A stretch of 57,212 nt of DNA from an uncultured delta proteobacterium. Lineage in GTDB: Bacteria; Desulfobacterota; Desulfomonilia; UBA1062. Position numbers and translations under genes: made by a program. Positions 9,706 to 56,050 of this stretch are shown here, piece by piece; within the stretch, counting starts at the first letter, position 1; each line of letters opens with the position of its first letter. The notes below the pieces were generated by a model. The model was not told the origin of the DNA and did no database searches. It saw only the letters and a program-made list of their open reading frames with translations. The DNA is taken from NCBI GenBank assembly GCA_963752595.1, contig CAVVYZ010000031.1:1-57212 (forward strand), given 5' to 3'.

Positions 9706-9729
9706 TGAGACGTTATCCGGGATTTCTCT

Positions 9730-35600: not shown

Positions 35601-36896
35601 CATCTCAAGGACCTCGCGGGCAAGACCAGGATCTGGCTCCCCCAGATACACCCGTATATTCCTCAGTTATGGGCTGCCGTACTCAGGAGATACGGCTATG
35701 ACGCCATTCCCACAGGGGAAGAGACTTCAGCCGAGTGCACGTTGGGCCGCTCCTATTGTCGAGGAAGCGAATGCCTGCCTGCAGCAGTAACCATCGGGAA
35801 ATTCCTCTCCTGTGTCTCAAACAATGCGCCCGGTTCCGGAGAGGTGAACGATGTGCTCTTCATGCCCCGTGCGGAGGGTCCATGCAGGTTCGGCCAGTAT
35901 GCAACGCTGCAATCCCGCATTCTTGAACAGAGGGACCTTACCAAAACCAGGATTTTTGCTCCCACGTCCGAAGACGGGTATTCCTTCCTCACCCCGGCCA
36001 TGGAGCGCAATGTCTGGCGCGCCATGTGCCTGGGCGACCTGCTCTTCAAGTTGAGATGCAAAACCATGCCCTATCACCCTGACCCCGGGTACGCCTCGAA
36101 ACTCTTCGAGCAGGCTTTGCAGGAGATCGGCTATCAGCTGCTCATGGGTTATGAGTGGAAAGAAACCGTCCGCTCGCTGATTGGAGAGCTTCAATCTTCC
36201 CTTGACCCTGCACAAACCAGGAAGCCACTGGTGGGGATCGTGGGAGAGATCTTTGTACGGATGAATACCTTCTCGAATCAGCACATCATTGAGGCAATCG
36301 AGGCGGAAGGCGGCGAAGCCTGGCTCTCGCCCATGTCGGAATGGTTATACTACGTCTGGGAGGCTGTCGCCAGAAAGAGCAAGCTGGCAAAGTCCGTGAC
36401 GACCTCGGTGAAAATGCGCTTCATGCATATGATCGAGCAGAAGATGCACTCCCTCTTTTCACCGCTCCTCGACGACAGGAAAGAACCTCCCCTTCGTCAT
36501 GTGATCGACCGGGGCCTGCAGTTTATCCCCTTCGAACTCGAGGGCGAGGCCATCCTTACCATTGGCAGGGCCAAGCTGTTCGCCGAGCAGGGAGCGTCCC
36601 TTGTGGTCAACTGCTCTCCCTTCGGCTGCATGCCCGGCCGGATTACCTCTTACCTTTTCCAGAAGCACCCTGACTATTTCGAAGTCCCGATCGTCAACCT
36701 TTTCTTCGACGGGATCGGGGACGTGGCTTCCCAGGTAGGCATTTACCTCAGGTCCATCACACAGAACGCGCCGCCTCAACAGAAAGAGTATGTACAGCTT
36801 TTCACTGACAGGAGAGACGGAAGGAGCCCGCAGGCTTTTACCGGCATCCCTTCAACAGAGGATCTTCCCCATCCCAATGACATGGATCTGATGTAG
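32658..36896 (+). CDS. Fused BCR/HAD-family protein (2 ASKHA activator + 2 reductase-type domains); PlsA/Ger-like
   Basis: Two GxDxGS/CAAGTGSF/RCxVF activator domains, then GRPYN, FSCGPD, LELDEH, ECLP, GPCRFGQY, GIVGEIFVR, PFGCMP; ~1410 aa, intact. Confidence 0.85.
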   Translation: MSYLGVDIGSSYVKIWHKDESGSFLSSKCIHHRGSPRETLRNELFHMSIRPERLCYSGHVHGQGLERWRSDGLLAEIKFLKDIYPQRTVLVLGAEKIELVHFNAQGRILSYRTNPACAAGTGSFLDEQMDRLGIKLADLKYIKIDENAPMVATRCAVFAKTDLIHLQQDGHSPHALYNGLCKGLVMSGLKSIFGGSIPDGSGILLTGGLLENPHIRHYLAAVLPGATIAQAPVFSRAMGLCESARLGDYAMDGFLDCLKGSLRDSLADTGQGALVLVKSRFPSHEMKRSLDGEGNEIWHDIKQGETFDAYLGVDVGSTSTKAVLVDNLTSSIRLDIYTKTSGNPIDATRRIFKSITLLQESTGFGLKIKGCCTTGSGRKLVGTIIGADLIINEISAHAKGAKSVDEHVETIFEIGGQDSKFIRLDKGRIVDVNMNYVCAAGTGSFIEEQANTLGMTLDEISEAVYGLSPLHNSDRCTVFMNQEVTRQLASGYAKGSIMAGVLYAVFKNYLNRVVGNHPYRSDKIVFQGATARNKGLVAALEQITGAEVMVSPFCHVMGAYGAALLVKERGMSASSFKGFALPEVAVGESSCRKCENMCRITTVKTGERKVSWGYLCGREQNSLKKREDNPAMRLRYDLLQRHSTDYKGRDRIVRIPALGLYDEFIPLFTEIGHELDIPIQVCYPGKEEILDELSLLGSGDFCYPIKVAIACTNVLLRTFPNDPVLLPFLVQEDKDPAILPRSLYCPFITALPSFYLKGPDAHRVSTPVIDLSMKISGQARQMRDFIEKESLAKVPFSRIKKAVKKGIKRLSDCRKSLEDQGKAMIEDLPQGKPVIVLFGRPYNLYHKILNLGLPELIESLGYQVIPMDIVPDEVSNEQVMEQYPDLYWTLGQKILRKALTIKNKHTMFPLMLSNFSCGPDSFVLSYFEEVSQNKPYLILELDEHGSAAGYQTRIEAFCDMIEQYRAGEAKPTKSAPNRIGHHLKDLAGKTRIWLPQIHPYIPQLWAAVLRRYGYDAIPTGEETSAECTLGRSYCRGSECLPAAVTIGKFLSCVSNNAPGSGEVNDVLFMPRAEGPCRFGQYATLQSRILEQRDLTKTRIFAPTSEDGYSFLTPAMERNVWRAMCLGDLLFKLRCKTMPYHPDPGYASKLFEQALQEIGYQLLMGYEWKETVRSLIGELQSSLDPAQTRKPLVGIVGEIFVRMNTFSNQHIIEAIEAEGGEAWLSPMSEWLYYVWEAVARKSKLAKSVTTSVKMRFMHMIEQKMHSLFSPLLDDRKEPPLRHVIDRGLQFIPFELEGEAILTIGRAKLFAEQGASLVVNCSPFGCMPGRITSYLFQKHPDYFEVPIVNLFFDGIGDVASQVGIYLRSITQNAPPQQKEYVQLFTDRRDGRSPQAFTGIPSTEDLPHPNDMDLM

Positions 36897-37031: not shown

Positions 37032-37088
37032 TTGACAAAAAGGGAGTAATCATTATTATCATTTAGTAATGAGTTCTCATTACTAAAT
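37032..37088 (+). promoter_or_regulatory. Sigma70 promoter with overlapping palindromic operator
   Basis: TTGACA 37032, TATTAT 37054; ATTTAGTAATGAG-tt-CTCATTACTAAAT at 37061-37088. Confidence 0.75.
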
Positions 37089-37315: not shown

Positions 37316-38554
37316 ATGGTTTTGGATCTTGATGGTCTTTTTCTCGTACCGCGAAGGCAGGCAGGGGGTGAATCAACCGGTGTCATATCTCTTGTACGGC
37401 AATGGGCGGACAAGGAAATCATAGGAAAACGTCTCGCCTACCTCCAGAATTACCCGGTCCTGTTCATGGAGAAGTTCCGGGTTCTCGCTTTATCAATGGG
37501 ACTTCAGAAGCTCGCTGTCTCAGAAGATCAGGGGGGGTTCGGCTGGAACACACCTGACCATGCCTCTGATATCTTGGAGGTGGTCACCGGGATCGCACGG
37601 GCTGATGCGTCCGCCTCCGTTCTCATGGCCATGAATTATGCGATCTTCTCCTCTGTCATCGAAACGGTATCATCGGAAAACTCGGATTCCTGCCATGATC
37701 TCACCCGGCGATATCTCTCCGATGAACTCATGCTCTCCTCCTGTATTCTTCCAGGGCCAGGATTTGCAGGCGAAATCACCCCACTCTTCAAAGGCCGTTC
37801 TCTCCGGGCAAAACTGGAGAAGGCAGGAACCGGATTCGTGATCAGCGGGACAAGCCTTCGCCCACTTGCCGGAGGAAAACTTGCTAACCTGTTCTGCACC
37901 GTCTGCACAGGTGTGGACGGCCTTCCCGTCATCGCACTGATGCCGGCAGAAGCCAAAGGAATCACCAGAGGCAACTCGATCATGACCACTGGCCTCAATG
38001 CCTGCACCAATGCAGATATCACCTTTGAGAAGGTGAAGCTCCCACGGGAGCAGCTCATCGATTATCCGGGGGCATCGGGAAATCTCCACACCTGGATCAA
38101 CCTCCTCTTCGGTGGGGCAAGTCTCGGTGCCGGTCTGAATTTTTTTGAAATCCTGAGCGACTGGTGCGAGACACGGGTCATCAAGGGGTCTGGGCTTCTC
38201 AAGGAAAATCCGCTCTGTGCTTCCGTCCTGGCCGATGTGGCAGAGGAGTTGGCATGCACGAAGCTCCTTCTGCAGGACCTTGCAAGCCTCATATCCTCAG
38301 AGTCAGGTCAAGGAAAGGAGGCCGGTCTTTTCACCTATGCCGGCATGATCGGTGCCCGCGCCCAGCAGTCGGTGATGAGGGCCATCAACAGGGGCCTCGA
38401 ACTTATGGGGTCGGCCGGTTATGCAAAGGAATGGCACGCAGAAAAGCACTGGCGGGATGTGAAGACGATCCAGTCTGTCCTCTGCGGTGTCGGTGCCGAG
38501 GCGCCTGTAAAGATCGATACCGCCCGATATTTCTATACCTGCAATGACATATGA
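37316..38554 (+). CDS. Acyl-CoA dehydrogenase family protein (divergent)
   Basis: GGFG, IARADAS, ADITFEKV, ELMGSAGYAKEWHAEKHWRDVK. Confidence 0.85.
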   Translation: MVLDLDGLFLVPRRQAGGESTGVISLVRQWADKEIIGKRLAYLQNYPVLFMEKFRVLALSMGLQKLAVSEDQGGFGWNTPDHASDILEVVTGIARADASASVLMAMNYAIFSSVIETVSSENSDSCHDLTRRYLSDELMLSSCILPGPGFAGEITPLFKGRSLRAKLEKAGTGFVISGTSLRPLAGGKLANLFCTVCTGVDGLPVIALMPAEAKGITRGNSIMTTGLNACTNADITFEKVKLPREQLIDYPGASGNLHTWINLLFGGASLGAGLNFFEILSDWCETRVIKGSGLLKENPLCASVLADVAEELACTKLLLQDLASLISSESGQGKEAGLFTYAGMIGARAQQSVMRAINRGLELMGSAGYAKEWHAEKHWRDVKTIQSVLCGVGAEAPVKIDTARYFYTCNDI

Positions 38555-38568
38555 CAAGGAGTAGCTGT

Positions 38569-39843
38569 ATGAAGACATTTGACGACTTCTCAAGGCCTCT
38601 TGAATATATATCGCCCCTGGACAAGCATTTCAGGGCGGTCCTACGGAAATATATCGAGCAGGAGGTCATGCCTTACCGGCGGAAATATGATGAGGACTGG
38701 AAGAGCCACACCCTCATCGAGCCCGCCTTCGACAAACTCATGGGCGAGCTCGGCCTCCAGAAAGCCCTCTTCCCGCAGGAATACGGCGGCTGGGGCATGG
38801 CAAATTCCGATTATGTCTTCCGCATCGCATACATGCTCTGCGAAGAATTCGGCAGGGCGGACACGGGCATGGCGGTAGCCTTGACCGTCACCTACTGGCC
38901 GCTCCTGGTGATCCTCGTGGAACCATATGTGAACGAAAGGCTCACCAAGGAGTTCGCACCCATGTTCTGCAATACAAAAAAAGCAGTCTTTGCCGCAAAT
39001 GCCATGACCGAGCCCCAGGGAGGATCCGATATCGAGAACATGGGGCTCCTGGGAGGCAGGACCATTCATACCACGGCCCGGCTCGACGGCGACGAATGGG
39101 TCATCAACGGCCACAAGCTCTGGCCTACCAACTCGGGCGGTGTATCCAAGCTCTTCGGCGTGCCGTGCACCACCAGGTCCGGCTCATCAGACTTAAACGA
39201 CTTTGCTTTCATCTTCGTGCCGGCCGACGCCAAGGGTGTTACCCAGGGCGGTGCGTACGAGAAGGCAGGCATGGCTGCCGACAAGAACGGTGACATCTGG
39301 TTCGATAATGTCCGCGTCCCGAGCTGGTACCGGGCACACGGCCCGGGCAGGGATGCAGAAGCCTTCTACCAGCTCATATCCTTCGGCCAGGTGGCGAGCG
39401 CAGCCTTCCTCACCGGTGCCATGCTCAATCTCTACGAGCGGCTCAATGAGTTTGTCTCCACCCGGACCTACAACAACAGGCCGCTCAAAGAGAATGACGC
39501 CGTTGCCGGGATCATCGGCAGGATCGCGGGCGACATCGATATCTGCAGGATCTTGGGCCACGAGGCTGCCATGATGGGCGACCGCCGCAACAAGCCCTAC
39601 GGCCTGCCTATCATGTCCGAAGAAGTGGTGGGCAAGATCCGCAACATCAAGGACTTCATTTCGGACAAGGCGGTCGACAACTTCGGCAAGGCAATGGACG
39701 TCCTGGGATGCTATGGGGCAGACCGCGATTGGGATATCGAGAAGCACTGGCGTGATATCAAGATCATCCAGCTCTGGATGGGTGGAAAGCAGCTCTGCCA
39801 GATGGAGGCTGCCCGATACTTCTTCAATTGCGAGACACTCTAG
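38569..39843 (+). CDS. Acyl-CoA dehydrogenase family protein
   Basis: PQEYGGWG, MTEPQGGSD, WVINGHKLWPTN, FDNVRVP, EKHWRDIK. Confidence 0.92.
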   Translation: MKTFDDFSRPLEYISPLDKHFRAVLRKYIEQEVMPYRRKYDEDWKSHTLIEPAFDKLMGELGLQKALFPQEYGGWGMANSDYVFRIAYMLCEEFGRADTGMAVALTVTYWPLLVILVEPYVNERLTKEFAPMFCNTKKAVFAANAMTEPQGGSDIENMGLLGGRTIHTTARLDGDEWVINGHKLWPTNSGGVSKLFGVPCTTRSGSSDLNDFAFIFVPADAKGVTQGGAYEKAGMAADKNGDIWFDNVRVPSWYRAHGPGRDAEAFYQLISFGQVASAAFLTGAMLNLYERLNEFVSTRTYNNRPLKENDAVAGIIGRIAGDIDICRILGHEAAMMGDRRNKPYGLPIMSEEVVGKIRNIKDFISDKAVDNFGKAMDVLGCYGADRDWDIEKHWRDIKIIQLWMGGKQLCQMEAARYFFNCETL

Positions 39844-39854
39844 GAGGCAGGTCT

Positions 39855-40292
39855 ATGATGAGCCGACCGAACAGAGGCATTATCGATGCAGGGAGCCGGG
39901 TCCTGGAACAGGTTATGGCCAAGCCCGCGTTCAAGGACGACCTGAGGGCTCTGCTCAACAATATCGACCCGGAGAACAGCCCCCGGCTTATCCGGACAAT
40001 GCTGGGCAGAGACATCGAGGTGCCACTTGCCGTCATGTCTGCACTGCCCGGCATAGCGAATATCCTCATCAGAATGGCTGACGAGCTCATCCGGCAGGTT
40101 TACGACAAATTCCCTGACCCTCTCCTCCAGGGCTTTGCCGAGTCGCTGCTGGCCGAGATCGACCACGAAGCCCTTGCCCGTACCGTCGAAGGCATGCAGC
40201 AGCTCGGCCGGGACTTGACACCGGTGTTTCAGGAAATGCTGAAAAAGATGGAAACTAGGCAGGTGCGCACTGCCAAAGGAGCCCTCCCATGA
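39855..40292 (+). CDS. Hypothetical alpha-helical protein (paralog A)
   Basis: GGAGG RBS; similar to the next ORF. Confidence 0.8.
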   Translation: MMSRPNRGIIDAGSRVLEQVMAKPAFKDDLRALLNNIDPENSPRLIRTMLGRDIEVPLAVMSALPGIANILIRMADELIRQVYDKFPDPLLQGFAESLLAEIDHEALARTVEGMQQLGRDLTPVFQEMLKKMETRQVRTAKGALP

Positions 40293-40948
40293 ATAACGCG
40301 ATGCATCCGGCGAACCGAGGCGGCATCATCAGAGAGCTTCTGAGGACGCCGGTCTTCAAGGATATCATCAGGAACAATACGCATGCATTGCAGTATGGGA
40401 GCGGCAGTACCATGGTCAAGACCGTCATGGGCCAGGACCCCGAGGTCTTCCTCAATCTCGCCGTCTCGACGCCCGCTCTCGTAAATATTTTTACCCGCGC
40501 CCTGGCAGAGCTGGGGCAGCAGCTCAAAAGCCAGTACCCCCCCGACACCCTTGCCGTCTTCATGGAAAGCATCCTCGGCGAGATCGATACCGGCTCGCTG
40601 AAACAATGCGATCTGGTGTGGAAAGACCTCATCAGCTCCCTGCTGAGGTCTTCGCCCGAGGTGATGAAAAAGCTTGCGGGCAAGGCTCTTTCAACAGGAC
40701 CGGCCACGGCGGCACAGGCAATCGATGCCCTCTCCCGGGCGCTTAACAGCCTGGAAAGGGACAGGCCCGGGGCTCTAAGCGGCTTCATAACCGATATGCT
40801 TCTCCACGTTGACCGGCCGGGAGCATCCAATGCCGCTCGCCTCATAGCCGGGGCGGTCCTCGACCAGAAGTGGCATGTATGCTCCCGGCTCTTCGGTCTT
40901 ATGCTGAGCAGGATCAGAAAGCGTTTCACTCTCCGGAGGTCGTGCTGA
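40289..40948 (+). CDS. Hypothetical alpha-helical protein (paralog B)
   Basis: ATGA overlap with the previous gene; shared P.FKD/G.D.EV/ES.L.EID pattern. Confidence 0.8.
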   Translation: MNNAMHPANRGGIIRELLRTPVFKDIIRNNTHALQYGSGSTMVKTVMGQDPEVFLNLAVSTPALVNIFTRALAELGQQLKSQYPPDTLAVFMESILGEIDTGSLKQCDLVWKDLISSLLRSSPEVMKKLAGKALSTGPATAAQAIDALSRALNSLERDRPGALSGFITDMLLHVDRPGASNAARLIAGAVLDQKWHVCSRLFGLMLSRIRKRFTLRRSC

Positions 40949-41097
40949 GATGCCGGTCGTACAGCGTATCGTTTCTTTGACTTTTCCGAGGTCTGACAAT
41001 CCCTCCAGGGAAGAAGGTGCAGCCGGAACCGGAAGGTATACTTACGGCAAGGCAAATAATAAAACATCATTACAGATAATAAGGTGATCCTGTGCCC

Positions 41098-41733
41098 ATG
41101 TTGAAGCTCACAGAAAAAAAGCGGCAGTATACAAGAGAAGCGATCATAGAAGCTGCTGAAGATCTGTTCAGCCGGCACGGCTACCACAATACGCAGGTCA
41201 TGGATATCGTCAAGGCCGTGGGCATGTCTGCAGGGACATTCTACAACTACTTCAAGGACAAGCGCGACCTCTTCGCACAGATTACCCGCCAGAACTTCGA
41301 CGATCTCAGGACCCAGGTCAGGGAGGTCAGAATACCGGTGAACATCTGGGACCGGAAAGACCGGATAGCGAAACTGGACGAGACCTATGCGGCATACTTC
41401 GATTACATAGATGGCCACAGACACCAGTACCTCATCCTCCTGCGTGGCAGCTACGGCGTGGACGAGGAATTTGACGACAACGTATGGAGCTACTACAGCG
41501 ACATAACTCAGGATCTCACCGAAGACATCCAGGGCTGGCTGGATATCGGCGTTATCGCCAAGGTAAACCCCCATACCCTTGCCTGCGCCGTGGTGGGCAT
41601 GACCATGCACCTCGGCCACACCTACCTCATGGAAAACAAGTTCAGCCGGGATGAGGCGATCCAGATGCTCACCTTCATGAGTAACCTGATGTTCGAGTCG
41701 TACCTGACAGAAGCGGGCAGAAAAGCCCTTTAA
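41098..41733 (+). CDS. TetR/AcrR family regulator
   Basis: AAEDLFSRHGYHNTQVMDIV..VGMSAGTFYNYFKDK. Confidence 0.93.
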   Translation: MLKLTEKKRQYTREAIIEAAEDLFSRHGYHNTQVMDIVKAVGMSAGTFYNYFKDKRDLFAQITRQNFDDLRTQVREVRIPVNIWDRKDRIAKLDETYAAYFDYIDGHRHQYLILLRGSYGVDEEFDDNVWSYYSDITQDLTEDIQGWLDIGVIAKVNPHTLACAVVGMTMHLGHTYLMENKFSRDEAIQMLTFMSNLMFESYLTEAGRKAL

Positions 41734-41766
41734 GGAACTGAACTAGATGAAGCGGAGGTTTGTACG

Positions 41767-43051
41767 ATGAATACCACTGACCATCAGACAGAGATTGCCC
41801 GTCTCTCGGCAAAGATTATCGGAGAAACGATCCGGGCAAGAGGCACTATGGTTTTGTTCAGCGAGGTCGCCCGGGAGATGATCGATGAATGGGCAAAGAA
41901 GGGTGGAATCAGAAACAGGCTCGCATCCCCTGCCAGGTGGATCGTTTCAAAGTTCCTCAGACCGGGCGGCAGGGGAACCGTCAGGGGCATATCGGCCGAC
42001 GTGGGAAGGCTCCTGACCGTAGTCGCGAGAAAGGTCAATGCCGACCAGCAGAAAAGACCCTGTCTGCCATACGACGACACGAGGGGACGCCATCCATGAT
42101 TTTCTCAAACATACCGACTTCGGCGAGATCAGGGAGATGGTCGAGGGTTCGGACCCGTGCATCCTCAAGACCATCGAGGCCTTCAACGAGCAGCTCTGGA
42201 AGTACCCGGCAAAGGTGGGCACACTCGTCGCGACCGTCATCCCGCTCATGAACACACTGATGAGGGTTCTGCGTGAAATCCTGGTCCCCATCGAGAAGGC
42301 CGTCGGCCCCGATCTGCTCGCAGATATTATCCTCTCCGTCATCAGGGGCATCAACGGGACTGACGCGGCAAAACTCACCAACTCCCTGCAGGAGGCTGTC
42401 CGGAGGGTCCACACGGGGAGTCTCCTTCTCGGTAAGGGCGGCAAGCCGCTGTTCCAGATCTACCTCACAGACCTGCTACAGGACTGCATGACTGAAATGG
42501 ACCCGGTGCTCCTGAAAAAAGTCCGTATCGTCTTTGCCGAAGACAGGGAGGCAATCGCGAACGCCATGGCGGATGGCTTAAGCGACAACCCTGAGATAAC
42601 ACGTATCCTTCCTGGCATCCATGGGCCAGGTGAAGACCTCGGACATCAAGGCAAGATCCCGCAGACTGGGCGTCATCGAGGAGATGGACCATCGAGAGCC
42701 TTGAATCTGCCGTATCCGAGAGCATGTCGGACCTCGATACCTATGAGATCGCCGGGCTCGTGAACACTCTCTGCAGGGTCGCCAACCGGATACACGATGC
42801 CAGGCCGGACATCATGAGCAACCCTTAAGCGGCATCATGGATTCCGTAAGCGTCGGAAGAAGTCGGAAAAACCGCGCAGTGGCTGATCCCCGATTTGGTT
42901 GATGCGTAAAGCCGCTGGCTGCGAGGTGATGCCCATACTGATGAAATCACTCCGTGACCTTATGAATCCTGATGATAACTATAAAAGCCCTGAGCGCTCA
43001 GACGGCATGGATGCCTTCAGGGCAGCTCCGGCATCAGGGGGTGAGCGATGA
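41767..43051 (+). CDS. Hypothetical alpha-helical protein (paralog C, frameshifted)
   Basis: GGAGG RBS; ORFs 41767-42099 and 42038-42763 plus continuation to an ATGA overlap at 43048-43051. Confidence 0.65.
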
Positions 43052-44185
43052 AGGAAAACTGAAACAGTGCTGCAGCCGCCTTGAACAATGAATTCATCCA
43101 GAAATGGAAAGAATGAAGGTGGCAAGGTCGTGGGCTACTCGTGCACCTTCATCCCCGAAGAGATCCTCCATGCCGCAGGGCTGCTGCCGTTCAGATTGCG
43201 GGGCATAGGTACCACATCGGTCTCCATCGGTGATTCATACTTCGGCCCGGTAAACTGCAGCCTGCCCAAGTGCATGCTGCAGCTTGCCGGACAGGGGTCG
43301 TACACCTTCCTCGACGGCGCGATAATCAGCAACGGCTGCGACTCCATGCGCAGGCTCGAGGAGTGCTGGAGAAAGGCGAGCGACGACTACCCGGGCACCC
43401 TGCCTGGATACTACGAGTACTTCTCCGTGCCCCACAAGGCAGTGGATTACAGCATCGATTTTATACCCAGGAGCTTGAAGGATATGATCGCAACCCTTGA
43501 GAGGCATTTCAAGGTCAAGATCACCGGATAAGGCCCTGAAGAAATCGATCAAGCTCTACAACCAGGGAAGAGCCCTCCTGCGGAAACTCGACGGGCTCAG
43601 GGAGCCGCAGGCGAAGTGCCCATCACGGGCGAGGATGCCATGGCCATCCTCATTGCAGGCCATGCCATGCCGCGTGAAGAGTTGCAGCGCCAGCTCGAGG
43701 ATCATCATTGCAGACCTCGAAAAGGCGCCATCAGTATCGGACCAGAAGAAGCGCCTCATGCTCGTCGGGAGCGCCAACGACGATGTGGATTTCATCAGGT
43801 CTGATCGAGGACGGAGGTGCCATTGTCGTTGCAGACACGGTCTGCTTCGGGTCGCGTACGCTATGCAAACCTCGTGGATGAACGGCGGACCCGATCCTTA
43901 CCCTCGCATCCCACTACCTGAACAACAGCATCTGCCCCCGCATGCTCGGCTCATACAAGGACCGGCGTTCCTACATCATGGACACCGTGAAAAGGCTGCG
44001 GTCGACGGCGTCATCCTGCAGAACGTGCGCTTCTGCGACCTTCATGGCTCGGAGAACGGCGTGCTCGAACGCGACCTGGAGGCAGCGGGAATTCCCTGCA
44101 TGCGCCTCGAGAGGGAGTACGGCCCCCTGGTGGAGACGGCAGGATCAGGATGCGACTCGATGCCTTCATGGAGAGGATATCATAA
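43048..44185 (+). CDS. BCR/HAD family Fe-S subunit (HgdB/BcrC-type), frameshifted
   Basis: GYSCTFIPEE.LHAAG, NCS, GCD, VCFG, ICPR, RFCDLH, LEREY, RLDAF. Confidence 0.85.
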
Positions 44186-44196
44186 AGGAGGTTACC

Positions 44197-44439
44197 ATGT
44201 GCGAGATTGACAGAGAGAAGTTGCCCTGGAGGTTTTGCGGGACATCGCCCTGGATGACGGCAGGATGCTGGCCGAAAGGCAGCGGGCCATCGATGCGCTC
44301 ACCCTCTTCCTTCTTCCTCGGCGGTCAGACCCTGGAATACATCGCCCGCAAGACCGACCTGGAGGTCCTCAAGGATCGCGCCAGGCTCTACATCCAGCGC
44401 ATCAAGTCCGGGGCGCATCTGAGTATGTCCGCGGTCTAG
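44197..44439 (+). CDS. Small hypothetical protein (~80 aa, frameshifted)
   Basis: AAGGAGG RBS before ATG 44197; TAG 44439 followed by the RBS of the next gene. Confidence 0.6.
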   Translation: MCEIDREKLPWRFCGTSPWMTAGCWPKGSGPSMRSPSSFFLGGQTLEYIARKTDLEVLKDRARLYIQRIKSGAHLSMSAV

Positions 44440-44452
44440 GAGGAAGAGGCAT

Positions 44453-45865
44453 ATGAAGAAGGAAACACGCGAGTATAACTATGACTGGATGCTCTGGACC
44501 ACCATCACCGCCGCGGCAAGAGCCCTGGACGGGACAGAGAAGGAATATGAGAGCCTGAAAGGGGTCATCCCGAACTTCAGGAACGTCCTGTACGCTTTGT
44601 TAAGGCACGGAGAGCCCGGGCAGGCTCTTCATGAAGATGGCTGCGGAATATCTCACCGACATCATGACAGCACATAGCCAGGGCAAGAAGCTCTGCCTCG
44701 GCACCTTTGTCTCGGCAAAGCACCTGTTCTTCGCCTTTGACAACGTGGTGCCTGCCTGGGCCGAGATCATGACCGTATTCGGTACGCTAGTCTTGACGGA
44801 AGGGCACGGCAGAGTACATGGACTACTGCTGCGAGGTGGGGTTCACCGAGACATCCTGCTCGGCACAGCGCGGTTCGTTCGGGGCATACCTGGCAGGCCT
44901 TGCCGAGAAGCCCGATTTCTCTCGTCTGCGGCGCGCCCGGCATCTGCGACACGAATGCCAATGCGGTCCAGTTTCTCTCCTCCTACCTCGACCTGCCCAT
45001 GTTCCAGCTCAACTTCCCCTCGAAGCTCACGGGGAAAAGGATCGACGACTACCACCGCAAGGACTACAAGGCCCTGATCACATTCATCGAAGAGCAGTCG
45101 GGCTCAAGGCTGAACGAGGACAAGCTCAAGGATCTGCTCGAAGAGCAGAAGCGCCAGGACGAGCTCACCATCGAGCTCTATCGATCTCATGCGGCTTAAG
45201 CCCTGCCCGGTGCCGCCTATCTTCACCCTGTTCATCTATGCCGGAAGGCTCTCCATGCCGGGCAGAAAATCGTACACCGCCGTGCTCGAATCCATGCTTA
45301 AGGTGGTGCGTGACAATGCTGCCAAAGGGCTATGCCGGCACGAGCTCGAAAAAGGAGCGTGCGCGGCTCCTGATGTGCTACATCGACCACTACACCACGG
45401 ACGCACGGTTCTGGGAATGGATCGACTGCCCAGGAGATCAGCCTCCTGCCTACGCTCATATTCAACTTCTGGAACGAGGGCGTCAACTACGCGGAAGGCA
45501 GGGAGGACGAGACCTACCACATAGACACCTCCAGCCTGGATACCATGATCGACTCGCTTGCTGACATCAACTCCCGCATGCCCATGGTCAAACAGCTCCG
45601 GGGCCCGTACGACGCGCCCGGGATGTGGCGGGACGATCTCCTCTTCATGTCGAGGATCATGAAGCCGGACTTCCTGGTCTATGTCGGGAGCATGGGGTGC
45701 CGCAACAGCTGGGGAGCGAACAAGCTGCTCCAGCGCGACTGCGAGCGGGAAGGCCTCCCCACCATGCTGCTCTTTGCCGATGCCTTCGACGACCGGGTCG
45801 CCTCCTGGGAGCACTGCGTAGACAAGATCAGGCGAGTTCATGCACGTAAGGGGGATCTGTCATGA
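44453..45865 (+). CDS. BCR/HAD family Fe-S subunit (HgdA/BcrB-type), frameshifted
   Basis: ETSCSAQ, GICDTN, FIEEQSG, MGCR, DAFDDR. Confidence 0.8.
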
Positions 45866-46649
45866 TCGTCAGCAGGCTGTGACGTTGGATCACTGACCAC
45901 CAAGGCAGTCATCCTCAACAACACCCGGATCATCAGCCATGCGCTTGATCCCTTCGACGTTCAACCCGGAAAAATCCGCAGCCGAGGTCATGGACATGGC
46001 CTTGAGCGCCGCCGGGCTCACCCTGAAGGACATCGGGTTCTGCGTGGGCACCGGCTACGGCAGGGAGCGGATCCCTTTCGTGGGCAAGGCCGTATCCGAG
46101 ATCGCCTGCCATGCCAAGGGCGCCCACTGGCTGCTGCCTTCGGTCAGGACCATCATCGACATCGGCGGCCAGGACTGCAAGGCCATCCGCCTCGATGACA
46201 AGGGCAACATCGCCAGGTTCGTCACCAACGACAAGTGCGCCTCCGGCACGGGCAGGTTCCTCGAGGTCATGGCAAAGCTCCTGGGCGTAGAGCTCGAAGA
46301 GCTGGGGAAGCTCTCCGCCCAGGCCAGAAACCCCATCAACCTGGCTGCCACCTGCACGGCCTGGGCCCAGGCCGAGGTCATCATGCACCTGAACACGAAC
46401 ACCTCGAAGGCAGACCTGGCCGCGGGCATCAACAAGGCCATGGCAGCCAGGGTCGCGATCCTGGCCAAATCGGTCGGGGTGCGAGAAGGATGTGTGCATG
46501 ACCGGCGGCGTGGCAAAGAACGCCGGCGTCGTGTCAGGCCATGGAGAAGCAGCTGAACGTACCCATCCGCAGGCTCAGGGTGGACCCGCAGGTCATGGGT
46601 GCCCTGGGCGCGGCGGTGTTCGCCAGAGAAAAGACTGGGAGGGAAGTGA
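45862..46649 (+). CDS. ATP-dependent activator (HgdC/BcrAD ASKHA ATPase) 1
   Basis: GCDVGS, GTGYGR, SEIACHA, DIGGQD, NDKCASGTGRF, TGGVAKN. Confidence 0.9.
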
Positions 46650-47443
46650 TGTATTACCGCAGGATGTGATGTGGGTTCCTTGAGCGCCAAGGCGGTCATC
46701 ATGAAGGACGGCGAAATCGTGGCCTCGCACGTGATATTCGCAAAGCCCGAGCCCGGAGAGTCGGCCCGGAGAGGTGATGGACATGCGCCCTTGAAAAGGC
46801 CGGGCTGTCTCTGCAAGGATATCGCCTACTGCGTCGGCACCGGTTACGGCAGGGACTCCATCCCCTTTGCCGACGCGTGGAGTCCGAGATCGTATGCCAC
46901 GGCAAGGGTGCCCAGTGGCTCATGCCCGGAGGTGCACATGGTCATCGACATCGGCGGCCAGGATGCCAAGGCCATCCGGCTGGACGGATGCGGAAATGTC
47001 ATCCGCTTCGCCTACAACGACCGGTGCGCTTCGGGCACGGGCAGGTTCCTGGAGGTCATGGCAGGGGCCATGGGCATCAGGCTCGAAGACATGGGTGAGA
47101 TATCTGCTCCAGTCGACAAACCCTCTCTCCATCTCCAACCAGTGCGTGGTCTTTGCAGAGACCGAGATCATCTCGCTCATCAATGCAGGGAACAACCTCC
47201 CGGACATCGTGGGCGGGCTGCACAAGTCCCTGGCCCACCGGGTGGCAGCGCTCGCCAGGGGCATCGAGCTCGATCAGCGAGATCACCATGACCGGCGGGG
47301 TGGCGAAGAACTGCCGGCATGTTCGCTGCCATCGAAGAGGCGCTCGGCGTGAAGCTCACGAAGATCGGAGACCGACCCGCAGATCATCGGCGCCATCGGT
47401 GCAGCCCTCATCGCTGCAAGGCTGCAAACGGAGGCAGCTGTGA
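46649..47443 (+). CDS. ATP-dependent activator (HgdC/BcrAD ASKHA ATPase) 2
   Basis: DVGSLSAK, GTGYGR, DIGGQD, NDRCASGTGRF, QCVVFAETE, TGGVAKN across frames. Confidence 0.88.
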
Positions 47444-48193
47444 AGAATCGCATGGAACTCTTTGCCGACACCATCAAGGCAGTCCGATCCTTTGTGGAGA
47501 ACGCGCCTGCCCAGGAGGTCATGGCTTGCTGACACTGCCATAGCCCATGGCCGGCAGGAGGGAGCAGGAACATCGTCCTGAAAGAGGACATGGGGCTCGA
47601 ACTGGGCAGCCCGGGGAAGGAATCCGTCTCCTGCCTGCTGTGGACCGAGAACCTCGCGACAGTTGCAGACGGCCGGATAACCCTCGTCGGGCCGGATTTC
47701 CCGGAGAGCGCGGGCAAGAGCCTGCCTTTCGGCAAGGTGGTCCTGGTGGGGGTTGAAGGGTTCACCGAGGACAATGCCTATGACCGGCACAAGGAGCTGG
47801 ATTTCCTGCGCTACGACCTCGACCTCAAGGGCTTCATGATGAGGGCGGTGTCCCAGTACATGAGGGAGTGGTGCAGGATCAGCAGCGAGGCCCTGCTGAA
47901 GGGCTTTTCCGCACGGATCCTGGGCTCGGCTCTCATGGCCCTCTTCCGGAAGAAGCCCTATGTGAAGGCCGTCGAGGTGATCTTCCTCACCTCCAGCACC
48001 GGATGATGTGAGCAGGCTCAGGGAGATCACGGCGCCTGCGGAGAAGATCATCGCTGCCATGAACAAGATGGCGGCCGAGATGGATTTCGAGTGCGGGAGC
48101 TGCGACTACCAGGACGTCTGCGATGAGGCCGACGGGCTGAAAGCATGAGGGAAACGCTCATGGAAAAGTCAAGGGAGGCAGTCGCATGGCTGA
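47440..48193 (+). CDS. Stand-alone acetyl-CoA synthase (CdhC/AcsB) middle-domain-like protein with C-terminal CxxCx5C
   Basis: DGRITLVGPD..LPFG, REWCRIS.EAL.KGF, ECGSCDYQDVC; end approximate. Confidence 0.65.
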
Positions 48194-48959
48194 AACGAAA
48201 ATACTGGCAATGTGCGGCAAGGGCGGGGTCGGCAAGACCTCGCGTCTCTGCCCTCATGGTGAAGCTGCTGGCGAAAGACCAACGGCAGGAAGATCCTGGC
48301 CATCGACGCGGACCCGGCCGTGGGCCTGGCAACAGCACTGGGCGTACCGGTGAGGAAGACCGTGGACGACATCAGGAAGGGTCTCATTGCCAGGATCCAG
48401 AAGGGTGAACCCCAGGGAAGCCGGGAGACGAGTGAAGCTCCTGGACTATGAGGTCTTCGAGGCCCTCGAGGAGCGGGACGGCTTTGCGCTGCTGGCCATC
48501 GGCAGGCCCGAGGACGAGGGGTGCTTCTGCAGGGTGAACACCCTCCTCAAGGACATCATCGGCGACCTGGCCGACAAGTTCGACATCGTGCTCATCGACG
48601 GCGAGGCGGGTATCGAGCAGATCAACAGGCGGGTGATGAAGACCGTGGACCACCTGGTCCTGGTGTCGGACACCTCGGCAAAAGGCATCGGCGTGGCAAA
48701 CACCATTGCGCGGGTTGCCGGCGAAAGAAGGCGGTCGACTTCACAAAGCATGGGCCTCGTGCTCAACAGGGTGAGGAGCGAGGCTGAGGTGGAAGACATC
48801 AGCCGCAGGACAGGCCTCGAATCTACGGATGGATCTCGGATGACGACATTATCAGGGATTTCGACTTCACGGAAGGTCCCTGATCGGAGTTCCCGGACAC
48901 CTCGCCGCACACTCGGCGTGATTGCGAATGTCCTGGAGAAGATGAAGGTGATGATATGA
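48186..48959 (+). CDS. cooC: CooC/AcsF-family nickel-insertion ATPase (frameshifted)
   Basis: CGKGGVGKT, IDADP, GRPEDEGCFC (CxC), IDGEAGIEQINR. Confidence 0.8.
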
Positions 48960-49806
48960 ATGGTTCCCCCATGACTGTGATGCCTGGTCTATTTCTCCCA
49001 GACCGGTAATACGCGTAAAGTCGCCGAGGAAATGGCAGATGCTTTCCGAGGCAAAGGTCACAAGGTCTGCACATTATCCATGAAGGATGTAAAACAGACC
49101 GATATGAGAGGGATGTGACATACTGGGCATAGGAGCACCCTGCTTCGAGAGCCAGGCCCCGACTCTGTCAAAGGGTTTCTTCAAACATGGCCGCTGCTGC
49201 ATGGCAAGGCCGCCTTTGTCTTTGCAACCGCAGGCGGGGCTCCCGGCCGCGTACTCCATGACCTCGCGGCCGGGCTGCAGAAAAAAGGGCAGCGATTCTG
49301 GGTGGTTTCATGTGCCGCGGCATGGTGCATCATCCCGCCTCCTGCCTAACGGGCCGCATGCCGGGCCGACCCGACCGGGAGGATCTTGAGCGTGCCCGCT
49401 CGTTCGCCCTGGCAGTGGACAGGCATCTTGAGGACGGCGCTTCAATGCCAATGGCTGAAGGCATAAAGGACGCCATCACCCCCAAATGGGGGTTTTTATG
49501 ACATGGTTTCATTCATTGCCAAACCCTTCCTGCTGCGCATCCTCCTTCCCAGGCCGCACCCGGATCATTCCCGGTGCACCCAGTGCGGGTCATGCATGGA
49601 GGGATGCCCGATGCAGAGCATTGACCTGAAACCCTATCCGGTTGCGGACACGAAGTGCATCCGCTGCTACCACTGCCTGAATGCCTGCCCGCAGAAAGCC
49701 TTAAACGTATCCTGGCAATATGGCAACCTCGGTGATTCTGTCGCTGTACAACACGCTTTTCTTTCGCCTCTTCGGGGATCTAGAGCCAGGGGAAAGGATA
49801 TATTGA
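48956..49806 (+). CDS. EFR1-type flavodoxin-ferredoxin fusion (frameshifted)
   Basis: YFSQTGNT; CTQCGSCMEGCP and CIRCYHCLNACP. Confidence 0.85.
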
Positions 49807-49807
49807 T

Positions 49808-50936
49808 ATGCTGGTGATCATCGAAGATATTTGAAGACCTTCTGGAAAGCCCGCAGAACAGCCTCGTCGAGCAGGCCGTAGAAGAGGGACGCATACCCAT
49901 CGGGTACTCCTGCTCGTTCGTGCCCGAAGCCCTGCTCATGGCGGACGTCTTTTCCCGTTGCGTCTTCATGCAACAGGAGTCGCAGGCACCGAGATCGCCG
50001 ACAATTACCTGTCGAGCTTCATCTGCTCGTATGCGCGAAGTCTCCTCGAATTCGCCTTCGACGACCGGTACGACCTGGTGAAGGGCTGGGTCTTCGTCCC
50101 ATCCTGCGCGCACATGCAGCGACTCTACGACAATCTGGAATACCTCAAGAAACCTGCGTTCAACCATGTGATCGACGTACCGCGGAAGATCAACGATGCC
50201 ACGATTACCTGGCTGACAGAGGAACTCACAGTGCTCAGCGGACAGGCTCGCCGACCATTTCGGGGTGGACATGAGCGACGGCTCTCTCATGAAGGCCATT
50301 GCCGAGTGGAACAACTTCGCGCAAGCCATCAAGGCAATGGGAGACTTGAGGAAGAGATCTTACCCGCCCGTCACCGGCACCGAGTTTCACGCCCTGCTCA
50401 TGGCATCCCTGGCCTCGCCCAAGGACCTGATCCTGCCGAAAATCAATGATTTTTGCACAGAGATCGAAAAGCGCCCCGGCATTGGAAGCTATCGCGCCCG
50501 CCTGATGGTGGTAGGCGGGCACCTGCACGACCCGGAGTTCATCAGCATCATCGAGTCCCAGGGGGGGCTCGTGGTGGCCGACCGGTTCTGCACCGGGTCG
50601 ATCCCCGGGATCACACCTATCGAAGCGGCCGGGAGCGACCCCATCCGGGCACTGGCCGAGCATTCCTTCAAAAAGACCCTGTGTCCGCGCATGATGGAGA
50701 ACTTCGACATGCGGCTGCAGACGATCATCGACACGGTAAAAGAATACCATGTGGACGGCGTGGTCATCGAGATCATCAAATTCTGCGACCTCTGGGGCGT
50801 GGATTCCATGCCGCTGGTGAAGGCTTTGAGGAAAGAGGGAATCCCCGTGCTTAAATTGGAGCGCGAATACCGGCTGGGCGGAGAAGGACAGCTGCGGACC
50901 CGTGTTCAGGCCTTTATCGAGAGCATGGGAAAATGA
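49808..50936 (+). CDS. BCR/HAD family Fe-S subunit (HgdB/BcrC-type) 2, frameshifted
   Basis: GYSCSFVPE, FICSY, PSCAH, RFCTG, LCPR, KFCDLW, LEREY, QLRTRVQAFIE. Confidence 0.88.
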
Positions 50937-50958
50937 TGCCTTGCAAAGGAAGAAAGAG

Positions 50959-52587
50959 ATGACGAAGCATGAAGCAATGAGAACGGCCAGTGACATGATC
51001 CGGGGCCTGCCTTCACAGGCCCGCTTCTTCAGGGAGCATTCCTTGGAGATTATCCGGGATATGCGCTCCCTTTCGGCAAAAGATTTTCGGGTATACGCAA
51101 AGTACTGGCTGCTGATCTGGATGTGCATTGCAAAGGTGGTCGCGAAGAGGGGCCCAATAGGCTTCATCCGGGAGCTGATCCGCTACCCCTGGATGCTGCA
51201 CCTGCTCAGGGTGACCGGCCTGATGCGGAGGCTCTGCCGGGGGCGGAGCGGGCTCTACCTCGAATCCATATGCATCACGATCCACTCGGTGGCGGTCATG
51301 CTCGCCGAAATGCTGGAAGACCTGTTCTACCGCAAGGACCGCCTCATCATCACCGAAGAGATGGTGCCGCCGGACATCGCCCGCGCCATGGGGCTCAAGG
51401 TCTGGATGCTGGAGGCCATGGGGATACTCCTGCCCATGATGACACCCGAGTTCAACCTGAAATATATCGACGAGGCTGAGAACGCAGGCATAAACCCGGA
51501 TGCCTGCAGCCTTCCCAAGGCGACCGTGGGCATGGTCATCAATGGGCATATGCCGGGCGGTCTCGCCATGGTAAGCTCCAACATGCCCTGCGATGCAGGG
51601 ATGGCCTCATATTCATTTATCCAGCAGGAGTATGGTCTCCCCATGTACCGCCTCGATGTGCCGTACAATTTTTACAACGAGAGGGCGGAGAAGCTCTTTT
51701 CCGAAGACCTCAAAGGCATGATCGCCTTCCTCGAAGAGAACACGCCCGGCCGCATGGACTGGGACCGCCTCAAGCAGATCTGTGAAGGCAGGAACCGCAT
51801 GCTGGAGCTGGAGCTCGAGCTGTGGGACATGACCCGGGTGAGACCTGCCCCGCTGGCAGCCGAGGCCGTGTTCCTGAGCCACTTGTGGCATTTCAATCTT
51901 TTTGCCGGCGACGAGCGCTCAATACGGCATTACGAGCGCCTGGTGGACATGGCCAGGAAAAATCTCTCTTCAGGCACCCCTGCCACGGACAAGGAGAAAT
52001 ACCGGGCAGTGCTCTGGAACCCGCCCTTCCCCCATTTCGTCCACATCTTCAACAATGCGGAGCGCCTCTTCGGCGTCACCCTCATCAACGACAGCATGAC
52101 CTACAACCATCACACACCCATCGACACATCGACCCCGGACACCATGCTCAAAGGCCTGAGCATGGTCATCATGCAGGGCCCCATGGTCCGCCACACCAGG
52201 GGACCTGCGGAAAACTACCTCGATGACATCTTCCGCATGTGCAAGCAGTTTGATCTCGACATGGTGTGGGTTGCAAACCACGTAGGCTGCAAGAGCGGCC
52301 AGGCCATGAACGGCATGCTGAGGGAAAAGTGCCGCGAGAAGAAGATACCCGTGCTCATTCTCGATTACGACCTGCTCGACCCGCGCATCGTTTCCCAGGA
52401 GACCATGATGAGCCAGGTGGAATTCTTCATGGAAAACGTGATGAAGGCACCGCGCATGGATAGTGAGATGAGTCTGAGCAAGCAGAGGAATCAGCACTGG
52501 CAAAACCCTGCAGGAGCGAAAGCAAGTGCCGGAATACCAAGAAAGAACCGGACGGCTGATGTCCGGTCGATGCACCACGACACCTGA
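50959..52587 (+). CDS. BCR/HAD family Fe-S subunit (HgdA/BcrB-type) 2
   Basis: DACSLPK, MPCD, LDVP, FLEENT, HVGCK, DLLDPR. Confidence 0.88.
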   Translation: MTKHEAMRTASDMIRGLPSQARFFREHSLEIIRDMRSLSAKDFRVYAKYWLLIWMCIAKVVAKRGPIGFIRELIRYPWMLHLLRVTGLMRRLCRGRSGLYLESICITIHSVAVMLAEMLEDLFYRKDRLIITEEMVPPDIARAMGLKVWMLEAMGILLPMMTPEFNLKYIDEAENAGINPDACSLPKATVGMVINGHMPGGLAMVSSNMPCDAGMASYSFIQQEYGLPMYRLDVPYNFYNERAEKLFSEDLKGMIAFLEENTPGRMDWDRLKQICEGRNRMLELELELWDMTRVRPAPLAAEAVFLSHLWHFNLFAGDERSIRHYERLVDMARKNLSSGTPATDKEKYRAVLWNPPFPHFVHIFNNAERLFGVTLINDSMTYNHHTPIDTSTPDTMLKGLSMVIMQGPMVRHTRGPAENYLDDIFRMCKQFDLDMVWVANHVGCKSGQAMNGMLREKCREKKIPVLILDYDLLDPRIVSQETMMSQVEFFMENVMKAPRMDSEMSLSKQRNQHWQNPAGAKASAGIPRKNRTADVRSMHHDT

Positions 52588-52604
52588 ACGAGAGGGAGAC
52601 TGAC

Positions 52605-53399
52605 ATGGCAATAAGATTTTACGGCGGATGCGACGTGGGCTCAACAACAGGCAAGGCCGTCATCATCGACGAAGACGGCTCCATCATCGCCACATCAATT
52701 ATCCCGAGCGAGATCGATCCAGGGCTGACTTCAACGATCGCTTTGGAGAAGGCCTGCAGCCAGGTCCCGGGCTTAAGCAGCTTCCGAGACCTTGCCTGCC
52801 TTGTGGGCACAGGGTACGGGAGGAACGAGGTCGCCTTTGCCGACAGGAATATCTCGGAGATCAGCTGCCATGCCATGGGAACATTCACCTGCAATCCGGA
52901 CATAAAGACCATCGTCGACATCGGAGGGCAGGATGTGAAGGCCATCTCGCTGAACAGTGACGGATCGGTTCTGGAGTTTGCCATGAACGACAAATGCGCC
53001 GCAGGCACCGGGCGGTTCTTCGAGGCCATGAGCCGCATATTCCGTATGGACATATCGGAGTTCTCCGGGCTATCGCTCACGGCGAACAAGATCATACCGG
53101 TCACCGCTCAGTGCAGTGTATTTGCCGAGAGCGAGGTAATCAGCCTCCTGGCCAAACGCAACCCGCCCGAAGAGATCGCGGCAGGCATCCAGGCAGCCGT
53201 GTCCAAGCGGTGCTTCACCCTGCTCAAACGGATCGGCATGCAGCCCCTGGTAACCGTCACCGGTGGCTGCGCCAAGAATAAGGGCCTCATCAGGGCACTG
53301 GCAAAGATCATCGGCATGGAAGTGACGCAGCTGACGATCGACCCCCAGATCGTCGGGGCCCTTGGGGCAGCGATATTCGCCCGCAAGGCTTCTGCATAG
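52605..53399 (+). CDS. ATP-dependent activator (HgdC-type ASKHA ATPase) 3
   Basis: GCDVGSTTGK, GTGYGR, DIGGQD, NDKCAAGTGRF, QCSVFAESE, GALGAA. Confidence 0.93.
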   Translation: MAIRFYGGCDVGSTTGKAVIIDEDGSIIATSIIPSEIDPGLTSTIALEKACSQVPGLSSFRDLACLVGTGYGRNEVAFADRNISEISCHAMGTFTCNPDIKTIVDIGGQDVKAISLNSDGSVLEFAMNDKCAAGTGRFFEAMSRIFRMDISEFSGLSLTANKIIPVTAQCSVFAESEVISLLAKRNPPEEIAAGIQAAVSKRCFTLLKRIGMQPLVTVTGGCAKNKGLIRALAKIIGMEVTQLTIDPQIVGALGAAIFARKASA

Positions 53400-55959: not shown

Positions 55960-56036
55960 TGGTCGGGAAGCGGGGATTTGAACCCCGGGCCCCAGCGTCC
56001 CGAACGCTGTGCTCTACCAGACTGAGCCACTTCCCG
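55960..56036 (-). tRNA. tRNA-Pro(CGG)
   Basis: CGGGAAGTGGCTCAGTCTGGTAGAGCACAGCGTTCGGGACGCTGGGGCCCGGGGTTCAAATCCCCGCTTCCCGACCA. Confidence 0.97.
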
Positions 56037-56050
56037 TTACCGTCGTACTG

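Follow-up and report, generated by a model that had tools for sequence, protein, structure and literature searches.

To our knowledge, the only reactions known for the family of benzoyl-CoA reductases (BCR) and 2-hydroxyacyl-CoA dehydratases (HAD) are the reduction of aromatic rings and the dehydration of 2-hydroxyacyl-CoA esters. Here, we analyzed a 57,212-nucleotide contig of an uncultured delta proteobacterium of the UBA1062 family in the class Desulfomonilia (CAVVYZ010000031.1 of assembly GCA_963752595.1; the whole stretch is called the window), which carries at 37316-53399, on the plus strand, an operon of 17 genes with two sets of BCR/HAD-type subunits. Among the closest described systems, BzdN of the benzoyl-CoA reductase BzdNOPQ holds the ligands of an [8Fe-9S] cluster (PMC11971306), the THN-CoA reductase is a class I relative (PMC12016498), the dehydratase subunit HadC carries one cubane, and the role of the double-cubane cluster proteins (DCCP) is described as an open question (PMC7317905). 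With a probability of about one half, we read the operon as encoding an ATP-driven two-electron reductase for bulky, lipid-like acyl-CoAs that would otherwise be blocked in beta-oxidation, every catalytic step being extrapolated from BzdNO, DCCP, and HadBC. Genomes, contigs, and loci are designated G, C, and L; the window is contig C31 of G000, an assembly that is 84% complete.

Reductase-type subunits and their affiliation

Module 1 comprises a beta subunit of the HGD-D family (beta1, 43048-44185), a small protein of 80 amino acids that belongs to no family (44197-44439), a predicted catalytic alpha subunit (alpha1, 44453-45865), and two ASKHA electron-activating ATPases (act1, 45862-46649, and act2, 46649-47443). 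Module 2 contains beta2 (49808-50936; 31% identical to beta1 in the relative G020), a second predicted catalytic subunit, whose N-terminus carries a long extension (alpha2, 50959-52587), and a lone ATPase, a predicted homodimer (act3, 52605-53399). Several of these genes are broken in the window (see below), and all protein analyses were based on intact orthologs. Membership in the superfamily is clear, since the alpha and beta subunits are HGD-D proteins (PF06050) with cluster cysteines and the ATPases scored over the TIGR00241 cut-off.

Both betas have the six cysteines that bind the [8Fe-9S] cluster in BzdN (70 to 71 of 71 beta1 sequences and 31 of 31 for beta2), which are absent from the HgdB-type dehydratase beta of Fusobacterium, used as a control. 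The best solved match of beta1 was BzdN and that of alpha1 was HadB. In alpha1, Glu104, Cys135, Cys164, and Cys414 were invariant in 97 of 97 sequences, with equivalents in 31 of 31 alpha2 sequences, the Glu position having been assigned through the HadB alignment. The Glu65/His131 pair at the aqua cluster, a feature of the BZD type, is not kept: the Glu is invariant and the His is replaced. An Asn-Pro-Pro of alpha2 aligns to Gln274-Pro-Pro of BzdO. Two unlike ATPases occur in module 1 only, where they are predicted to form a heterodimer; act1 and act2 are 50% identical in G020; the motif behind the second cluster cysteine is deviant in act1 and canonical (CxVFAESE) in act3.

When compared with profile models, no subunit passed the curated cut-off of any Bcr, Bzd, Had, or DCCP model. 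The BzdN/O/Q models gave 153 bits for beta1 (cut-off 453.8), 29 for alpha2 (448.6), 202 for act1 (380.2), and no match for alpha1, the HadB and HadC models 36 of 750 and 159 of 700 bits, and the DCCP model NF040772 160 to 173 of the 350 bits needed; none of the BcrA/B/C/D models (BCR/MBR type) was exceeded. In two quick trees (72 and 56 rows, SH-aLRT support only, the second built without two long branches and 14 alpha1 rows), alpha1, alpha2, and four paralogs formed one clade with values of 99 and 98, set apart from seven over-cut-off BzdO sequences, HgdA, and DCCP/YjiM. The comparison with BcrB, MbdO, HadB, and FldB rests on profile scores and PDB alignments. As far as these trees go, the alphas form one uncharacterized clade outside BzdO and HgdA. 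The sequence-only reading had proposed an undescribed system, and this holds in that the subunits fall into no characterized clade and no published description of the cluster was found in the open literature, subscription papers and supplements (e.g., Desulfatibacillum/Smithella omics tables) lying outside that search.

It is possible, if on balance unlikely, that these proteins are dehydratases for long-chain or branched 2-hydroxyacyl-CoAs, in which ATP would only prime a recycled electron and whose substrates would originate in hydroxylated lipids, in diols, or in mid-chain hydroxy acids after chain shortening by beta-oxidation. The match of alpha1 to HadB and the one canonical ATPase of module 2 agree with this, as does the recurrence, beside these or sister loci, of GMC alcohol oxidoreductases, aldehyde-oxidizing enzymes, CoA ligases, and an oleate-hydratase-family gene; the lipid-transport operator described below is compatible as well. 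However, both betas carry the six double-cubane cysteines that characterized dehydratases lack, module 1 has two unlike ATPases, the scores against HadB and HadC are far under the cut-offs, and the alphas group apart from HgdA.

Conservation of the operon and a possible exchange of the two modules

By scanning species-representative genomes with the alpha1 alignment, 213 relatives were confirmed and 78 loci were kept, many of them cut by contig ends. Their hosts are Desulfomonilia, Smithella/Smithellaceae, Desulfatibacillum, Leptospirales, one Bacillota, and one Binatia record, and the distribution is patchy (alpha1 in 13 of 301 genomes of the phylum at an E value of 1e-60). Gene order, for which the sequence-only reading had suggested a search for cluster co-occurrence, was strongly conserved across the 78 loci and thus is not confined to the window. 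All 17 genes stand in the same order in G020, and a core recurs that is made of the helical protein U3, beta, alpha, two ATPases, an acetyl-CoA synthase (ACS) fragment called ACSd, and CooC, with its parts present in 58 to 73 of 78 loci. Act1 was found in 73 loci, beta1 in 71, U3 and act2 in 70 each, ACSd in 62, CooC in 58, and the small protein in 39. Of the two acyl-CoA dehydrogenase (ACAD) genes, ACAD2 was found in 47 loci and ACAD1 in 45, and of the parts of module 2, alpha2 and beta2 were found in 31 each and act3 in 25.

To count modules, we considered the 48 loci that had beta1, CooC, and enough downstream DNA, dropping 30 of the 78. A single alpha1 with module 2 was present in 29, a double alpha1 without module 2 in 11, both in 1, and neither in 7. 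This near exclusion of module 2 and duplicated alpha1 gives a Fisher p of 1.4e-5, which is overstated since the loci share descent. At the genome level, nine genomes with module 1 had no alpha2, six of them being 95 to 100% complete with at most 6% contamination; eight carried two alpha1 genes (G001, G002, G003, G005, G006, G007, G013, and G018) and G010 only one. All nine family genomes with alpha2 also had module 1. Alpha2 itself is often duplicated. Module 2 seems, therefore, to be an add-on that a second alpha1 can apparently replace. Because it is absent from near-complete genomes and nearly exclusive with a duplicated alpha1, the two modules are better explained as isoforms acting on a range of related substrates than as an obligate two-step chain.

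The sequential radical steps with a dedicated electron carrier that the sequence-only reading had proposed, i.e., modules 1 and 2 acting in obligate order on one substrate with the flavodoxin-ferredoxin fusion as the donor, consequently look improbable. In their favor, both modules are co-directional in 30 of the 48 countable loci, every alpha2-bearing family genome keeps module 1, Desulfatibacillum alkenivorans retains both although unlinked, and 41 of 48 loci carry two or more alpha genes, so that two reactions may be needed, with a second alpha1 standing in. Against them stand the nine genomes without alpha2, several of them 97 to 100% complete, the seven loci with a single alpha and no module 2, and the frequent duplication of alpha2. 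The proposed carrier (48956-49806, EFR1 family) is an optional part found in 15 of 78 loci, and the case for its being dedicated is weak.

Some related loci differ in content. G020 has, in addition to the genes of the window, a second alpha2, an upstream tetR paralog, and a ferredoxin-type protein of 434 amino acids (L013:4965-6269); the last is absent from the window, and its label appears in 19 of 78 loci, some being weak ferredoxin matches. It accompanies module 2 in many loci and is a possible alternative electron donor. The genome of the window has a second, paralogous cluster (L031, G000:C17:152000-171999) with an ACAD2-like gene, AFOR, a CoA ligase, a double-cubane beta, a long alpha, two ATPases, and CooC without the ACS fragment. 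In two other loci (L100:3928-6939 and L102:386-3199), a GMC flavoprotein is directly followed by an orphan alpha1 with no beta or ATPases, which suggests that the GMC enzyme and alpha have a substrate in common. A metagenome scan with the sister-clade alpha gave five short loci.

Operator, regulon, and class of substrate

Upstream of the operon, a sigma-70-type promoter (37032-37059, plus strand, 11 of 12 consensus positions, a consensus match only) is directly followed by a palindrome, RTAATGA-N4-TCATTAY (37066-37083), a predicted operator for a TetR-family regulator; the operon itself encodes one such protein (41098-41733, a family match). A weaker operator-like site (41055-41074, matrix score 20.5) lies 5' of tetR, pointing to predicted autoregulation; given this site and a gap of 150 bases, there may be a second promoter before tetR. 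In 13 of 42 loci, the 400 bases preceding ACAD1 contained a loose palindrome core, which never occurred in the corresponding stretch upstream of act1 (0/73), CooC (0/58), or beta2 (0/31). The exact pattern occurred in 12 of 16 family genomes and in none of nine genomes of the sister family, with a control of 0.

The same operator precedes MMPL/RND transporter genes in five of six genomes (G000, G001, G007, G020, and G024). In the genome of the window, the best other sites were 5' of both MMPL/RND genes and of the mlaE-mlaD operon, the MMPL sites scoring 27.0 and 17.7 against a background in which 5 of 1,113 sampled open reading frame starts reached at least 17. Among the MMPL sites of G001, G007, G020, and G024, three are in a cassette of MMPL, LolA-like, and DUF1302 genes. 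In Pseudomonas putida, DUF1302, DUF1329, and RND genes are needed for growth on fatty esters (bioRxiv 10.1101/2020.07.04.188060), and similar cassettes have been linked to monoterpenes in Castellaniella (PMC6394551). A co-regulated protein of 817 amino acids has 44 unnamed homologs, no Pfam or NCBIfam family, and weak atlas leads only. A conserved predicted lipoprotein of 810 to 840 amino acids stands beside the MMPL cassette in four loci (L210:8607-11060, L211, L212, and L213), with the operator directly 5' of its gene in L210, L211, and L213 and an outer-membrane barrel gene nearby.

None of the 16 family genomes yielded the ring-opening hydrolase Oah, which was found in eight of the nine sister-family genomes; the latter lack alpha1. 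Loci of the sister clade of alpha adjoin acyl-CoA ligases, GMC oxidoreductases, a START protein, thiolases, AFOR, and an oleate-hydratase-family gene, these neighbors having been hand-picked from five genomes with no background count. As individual cases, the sister-clade module of a Smithella (L171, G336:C51:55000-70000) comes directly after oleate-hydratase-family (MCRA) and TRAP-T/DctP genes, and that of L176 (G335:C4), with ACSd and CooC, lies among CoA ligases, a START protein, a GMC enzyme, and a thiolase. Based on the operator shared with transporters, the absence of Oah, and the sister-locus neighbors, we favor a hydrophobic, non-benzoyl acyl-CoA as the predicted substrate; the missing catalytic acid of the ACADs (see below) also counts as support for a lipid-like, non-benzoyl compound. 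The lipid-like substrate that the sequence-only reading had considered thereby gains independent support from the operator common to MMPL and Mla genes and from the lack of Oah in the family; its other suggestion, a polycyclic CoA ester, may also apply.

An aryl-CoA reductase, acting on benzoyl-CoA or a ring-bearing analog of the alkylbenzoyl, resin-acid, or naphthoyl type, is in our view quite unlikely. The four-subunit make-up and double-cubane beta are as in BzdNOPQ, and BzdN is the best solved match of beta1. Nevertheless, all Bcr and Bzd models stayed under their cut-offs, the alphas lie outside the BzdO clade, Oah was not found in any of the 16 family genomes searched, and none of the thn ring-opening genes (PMC12016498) has a counterpart in the operon. 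A variant of this idea is that the substrate may be a lipid-bound aromatic ring degraded by another downstream route.

The ACS fragment and CooC

Behind module 1 lie ACSd (47452-48193), which folds as the middle domain of ACS, and a CooC/AcsF-type ATPase (48186-48959). When compared with the ligand list of the A-cluster of ACS, ACSd retains the first three cysteines (CxxCx5C). Its profile aligns unbroken to full ACS through A-cluster cysteines 1 and 2, and cysteine 3 falls opposite the HVC cysteine; all three were invariant in 59 of 59 sequences. A fourth invariant cysteine, held in 10 sequences, was discarded after being found in only 32 of the 59 of the larger set. ACSd has neither the N-terminal domain, the fourth cubane cysteine, nor the C-terminal nickel ligands, and so shows neither the full ligand set nor the three domains of ACS. 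CooC keeps the KGG Walker A motif, and its CxC was invariant in 55 of 55 sequences. AcsF reportedly inserts nickel into ACS.

Five genomes with the ACSd-CooC pair had no carbon monoxide dehydrogenase (CODH) over the cut-off, and G007, G019, and G020 had no ACS domain besides ACSd; therefore, the pair is not a mere helper of CODH/ACS. The genome of the window does have ACS/CODH, on contig C2. In D. alkenivorans, the pair goes with module 2 (L165), unlinked from module 1 (L093), and four module-1 loci with long flanks are without it (L082, L092, L095, and L099). More speculatively, ACSd could be an iron-sulfur protein with three cysteines that senses CoA, with the CooC ATPase as its helper.

We consider it very improbable that ACSd and CooC form a nickel-iron-sulfur site that cleaves or forms an acyl-CoA C-C or C-S bond, in a decarbonylation-type reaction fed with low-potential electrons by the ATP-driven modules. 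The unbroken alignment to ACS, the invariant cysteines of both proteins, the pair genomes without CODH or another ACS domain, and the contact of the ACS middle domain with CoA (PMC12289521) agree with such chemistry, but neither the fourth cubane cysteine nor the C-terminal nickel ligands are present in ACSd, and the pair is missing from the four loci just named.

The ACAD pair and other accessory proteins

The operon begins with ACAD1 (37316-38554), a predicted partner subunit with an acyl-CoA dehydrogenase fold that has lost the TEPxxGSD flavin motif and has no Glu at either catalytic site. ACAD2 (38569-39843, with 38569 most likely as the start) has the flavin-binding motif, Met at the Glu376-type site in 39 of 42 sequences, and Gly at the Glu254-type site in 40 of 42. 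In cyclohex-1-ene-carboxyl-CoA dehydrogenase, one known exception among ACADs, Asp91 serves as the acid (PMC9293079); ACAD2 has no Asp or Glu in columns 99 to 113, the helix of this Asp91-type acid (the Asp91 position was placed approximately). ACAD1 and ACAD2 are thus unlikely, judging from these residues, to be ordinary dehydrogenases. A GMC flavoprotein lies upstream in 15 loci, none of which has the ACAD pair. The base-less pair, or the GMC flavoprotein in its stead, might perform a flavin redox step beside the reductase, although this is more speculative.

U1 (39855-40292), U2 (40289-40948), and U3 (41767-43044) had been described as unknown paralogs, and profile-profile comparison confirmed this with probabilities of 97.7 to 99.9 versus 2.7 to 3.3 for the reversed control. 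U3 is an all-helical protein of about 427 amino acids of no known family; Foldseek gave no match at an E value of ≤0.001, and the best VIA Z score was 7.1, for one helical hairpin only. Position, length, and a weak atlas match had given the idea that U3 is a YjiN/DUF445 homolog, which was rejected (profile probability 1.2 versus 1.9 for the reversed control). In the yjiN-yjiM-yjiL locus of Escherichia coli (L138), the double-cubane gene is preceded by a helical DUF445 protein of 426 amino acids, of U3-like place and size. More speculatively, U1 to U3 would be helical scaffolds or lipid carriers.

That the operon serves ATP-driven reverse electron transfer from a flavin dehydrogenase to the ferredoxin level in syntrophic fatty-acid oxidizers is scarcely credible, for although the system is widespread among Smithella-type syntrophs and its core is flanked by flavoproteins and ferredoxin-type proteins, the alphas retain substrate-site residues and diversify like catalytic subunits, the ACADs have no catalytic acid, sulfate reducers also carry the system, and, by reasoning, a syntroph could ill afford to spend ATP on each electron.

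Operon layout, reading frames, and neighboring genes

The 17 genes lie on the plus strand in the order that the sequence-only reading had given, and the coupling it noted is borne out by stops and starts that overlap or abut at U1/U2, alpha1/act1, act1/act2, and ACSd/CooC. As it had also stated, family searches found no ring-cleavage, CoA-transferase, or 2-hydroxyacid dehydrogenase genes among the 17. The reading frame is open in seven of the 17 (ACAD1, ACAD2, U1, U2, TetR, alpha2, and act3), and frameshifts or stops interrupt the other 10, U3, beta1, and alpha1 among them, as judged against G020 (L013/L014, equal to L033), where all 17 orthologs are intact.

The breaks are most likely long-read errors, because housekeeping genes are also affected, short-read contigs show indels inside broken genes, and key residues survive. 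Thus, GroEL, HCP, CODH, and ACS are fragmented in the same assembly, near-identical short-read contigs differ by single-base indels at 42853, 42905, 42921, 46633, 46653, and 46925 (depth below 3, and hence weak), and the window copies retain the cluster-binding cysteines, with the codons of beta1 Cys264 and Cys294 read directly at 43843 and 43933. Less probably, module 1 would be decaying in this strain.

An intact fusion of 1,435 amino acids with two activase domains and DUF2229 (32589-36896, plus strand) ends 420 bases upstream of the operon; it was rejected as a component of the system, with no match in 20 related loci. A B12-binding radical SAM gene (53909-55612, minus strand) converges on the operon, and several further radical SAM genes, with a phosphotransferase and an RmlD-like gene, lie at 2356-11448. 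On the minus strand at 55960-57212 are a tRNA-Pro and two near-duplicate inverse-autotransporter beta-domain stretches, the second broken.

Proposed mechanism and significance

If the operon encodes a reductase for lipid-like acyl-CoAs, TetR would release it together with the transport genes upon binding a hydrophobic ligand or its CoA ester. The ATPase dimer would then be reduced by ferredoxin or the flavodoxin-ferredoxin, and ATP hydrolysis would drive electrons one at a time into beta, whose [8Fe-9S] cluster would store them. The CoA ester, bound at the open-site [4Fe-4S] cluster of alpha, would be reduced via a ketyl-type radical, the target being a conjugated double bond or an activated hydroxyl group lost reductively. 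Module 2 or a second alpha1 would act as an interchangeable isoform, broadening the range of substrates, and not as an obligate next step.

Several observations weigh against this proposal. A double cubane is no proof of reduction, and the physiological role of DCCP is open (PMC7317905). The position of BzdO His131 is Asn in alpha1 and Gly in alpha2, although MbdO likewise has no His there, and module 2 has a single ATPase, like the dehydratases. D. alkenivorans, with a double alpha1 plus an unlinked module 2, departs from the exclusion pattern. Most Smithella loci lack the operator; it occurs without alpha1 in G004 and G008 and has no exact match in G010 and G015, which bear alpha1; in G019, the operator scan gave no transporter link (the control pattern gave 4 matches). 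Finally, the sister-clade neighbors were chosen by hand.

A more ambitious version, which we regard as doubtful, would make this a third BCR/HAD branch, in which anaerobic degraders of fatty acids and hydrocarbons use an ATP-driven radical system under lipid control. A truncated ACS and its own CooC would provide an iron-sulfur site gated by nickel or CoA, and the reaction, reductive C-O or C-C cleavage of a lipid acyl-CoA, would be one so far not known for the family. In digesters, sediments, and oil fields, Smithella, Desulfatibacillum, and Desulfomonilia break down fatty acids and hydrocarbons. The clade is large, conserved, and little studied, its predicted regulon points to lipids, and with a cultured host at hand (D. 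alkenivorans DSM 16219) the question of the substrate is directly testable. The double-cubane betas, the three A-cluster cysteines of ACSd, and the ACADs without catalytic acid go beyond the sequence-only reading; the link between operator and transporters, the Oah contrast, and the missing ACAD acids are new findings of this work. The labels benzoyl-CoA reductase or hydroxyglutaryl-CoA dehydratase would mislead for these genes.

Comparison with known systems

The operon has a BZD-like architecture, yet its subunits fall outside Bzd, Bcr, Had, and DCCP as their models define them. With BzdNOPQ (PDB 8S02; PMC11971306) it shares the double-cubane beta, the Glu and three cysteines of alpha, and two unlike ASKHA ATPases. 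It differs in that its alphas form a separate clade, lack His131, and both have N-terminal extensions, in model scores far below the cut-offs, in the absence of ring-opening genes, and in its extra partners, i.e., U1 to U3, the ACS fragment, CooC, and the base-less ACAD pair. HadBC/HadI and HgdAB/HgdC (PDB 3O3M) resemble it in the fold family, in HadB being the best solved match of alpha1, and, for module 2, in the use of one ATPase; unlike them, it has six and not three cluster cysteines in beta, a predicted heterodimeric ATPase in module 1, and no CoA-transferase or 2-hydroxyacid dehydrogenase.

DCCP/YjiM (PDB 6ENO; PMC7317905) has the six double-cubane ligands and ATP-driven reduction by an ASKHA ATPase in common with the operon but is a homodimer with no alpha partner. 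The ACS middle domain and CooC/AcsF are matched by the fold and three A-cluster cysteines of ACSd and by the KGG and CxC motifs of CooC; unlike ACS, ACSd has no N-terminal domain or C-terminal nickel ligands, and, unlike in ACS/AcsF systems, the pair is kept inside a reductase operon and in genomes free of CODH or ACS. As in atypical ACADs such as cyclohex-1-ene-carboxyl-CoA dehydrogenase (PMC9293079), the usual catalytic Glu has been lost from the ACAD pair, which differs in having no replacement Asp in the matching helix and in consisting of two unlike subunits.

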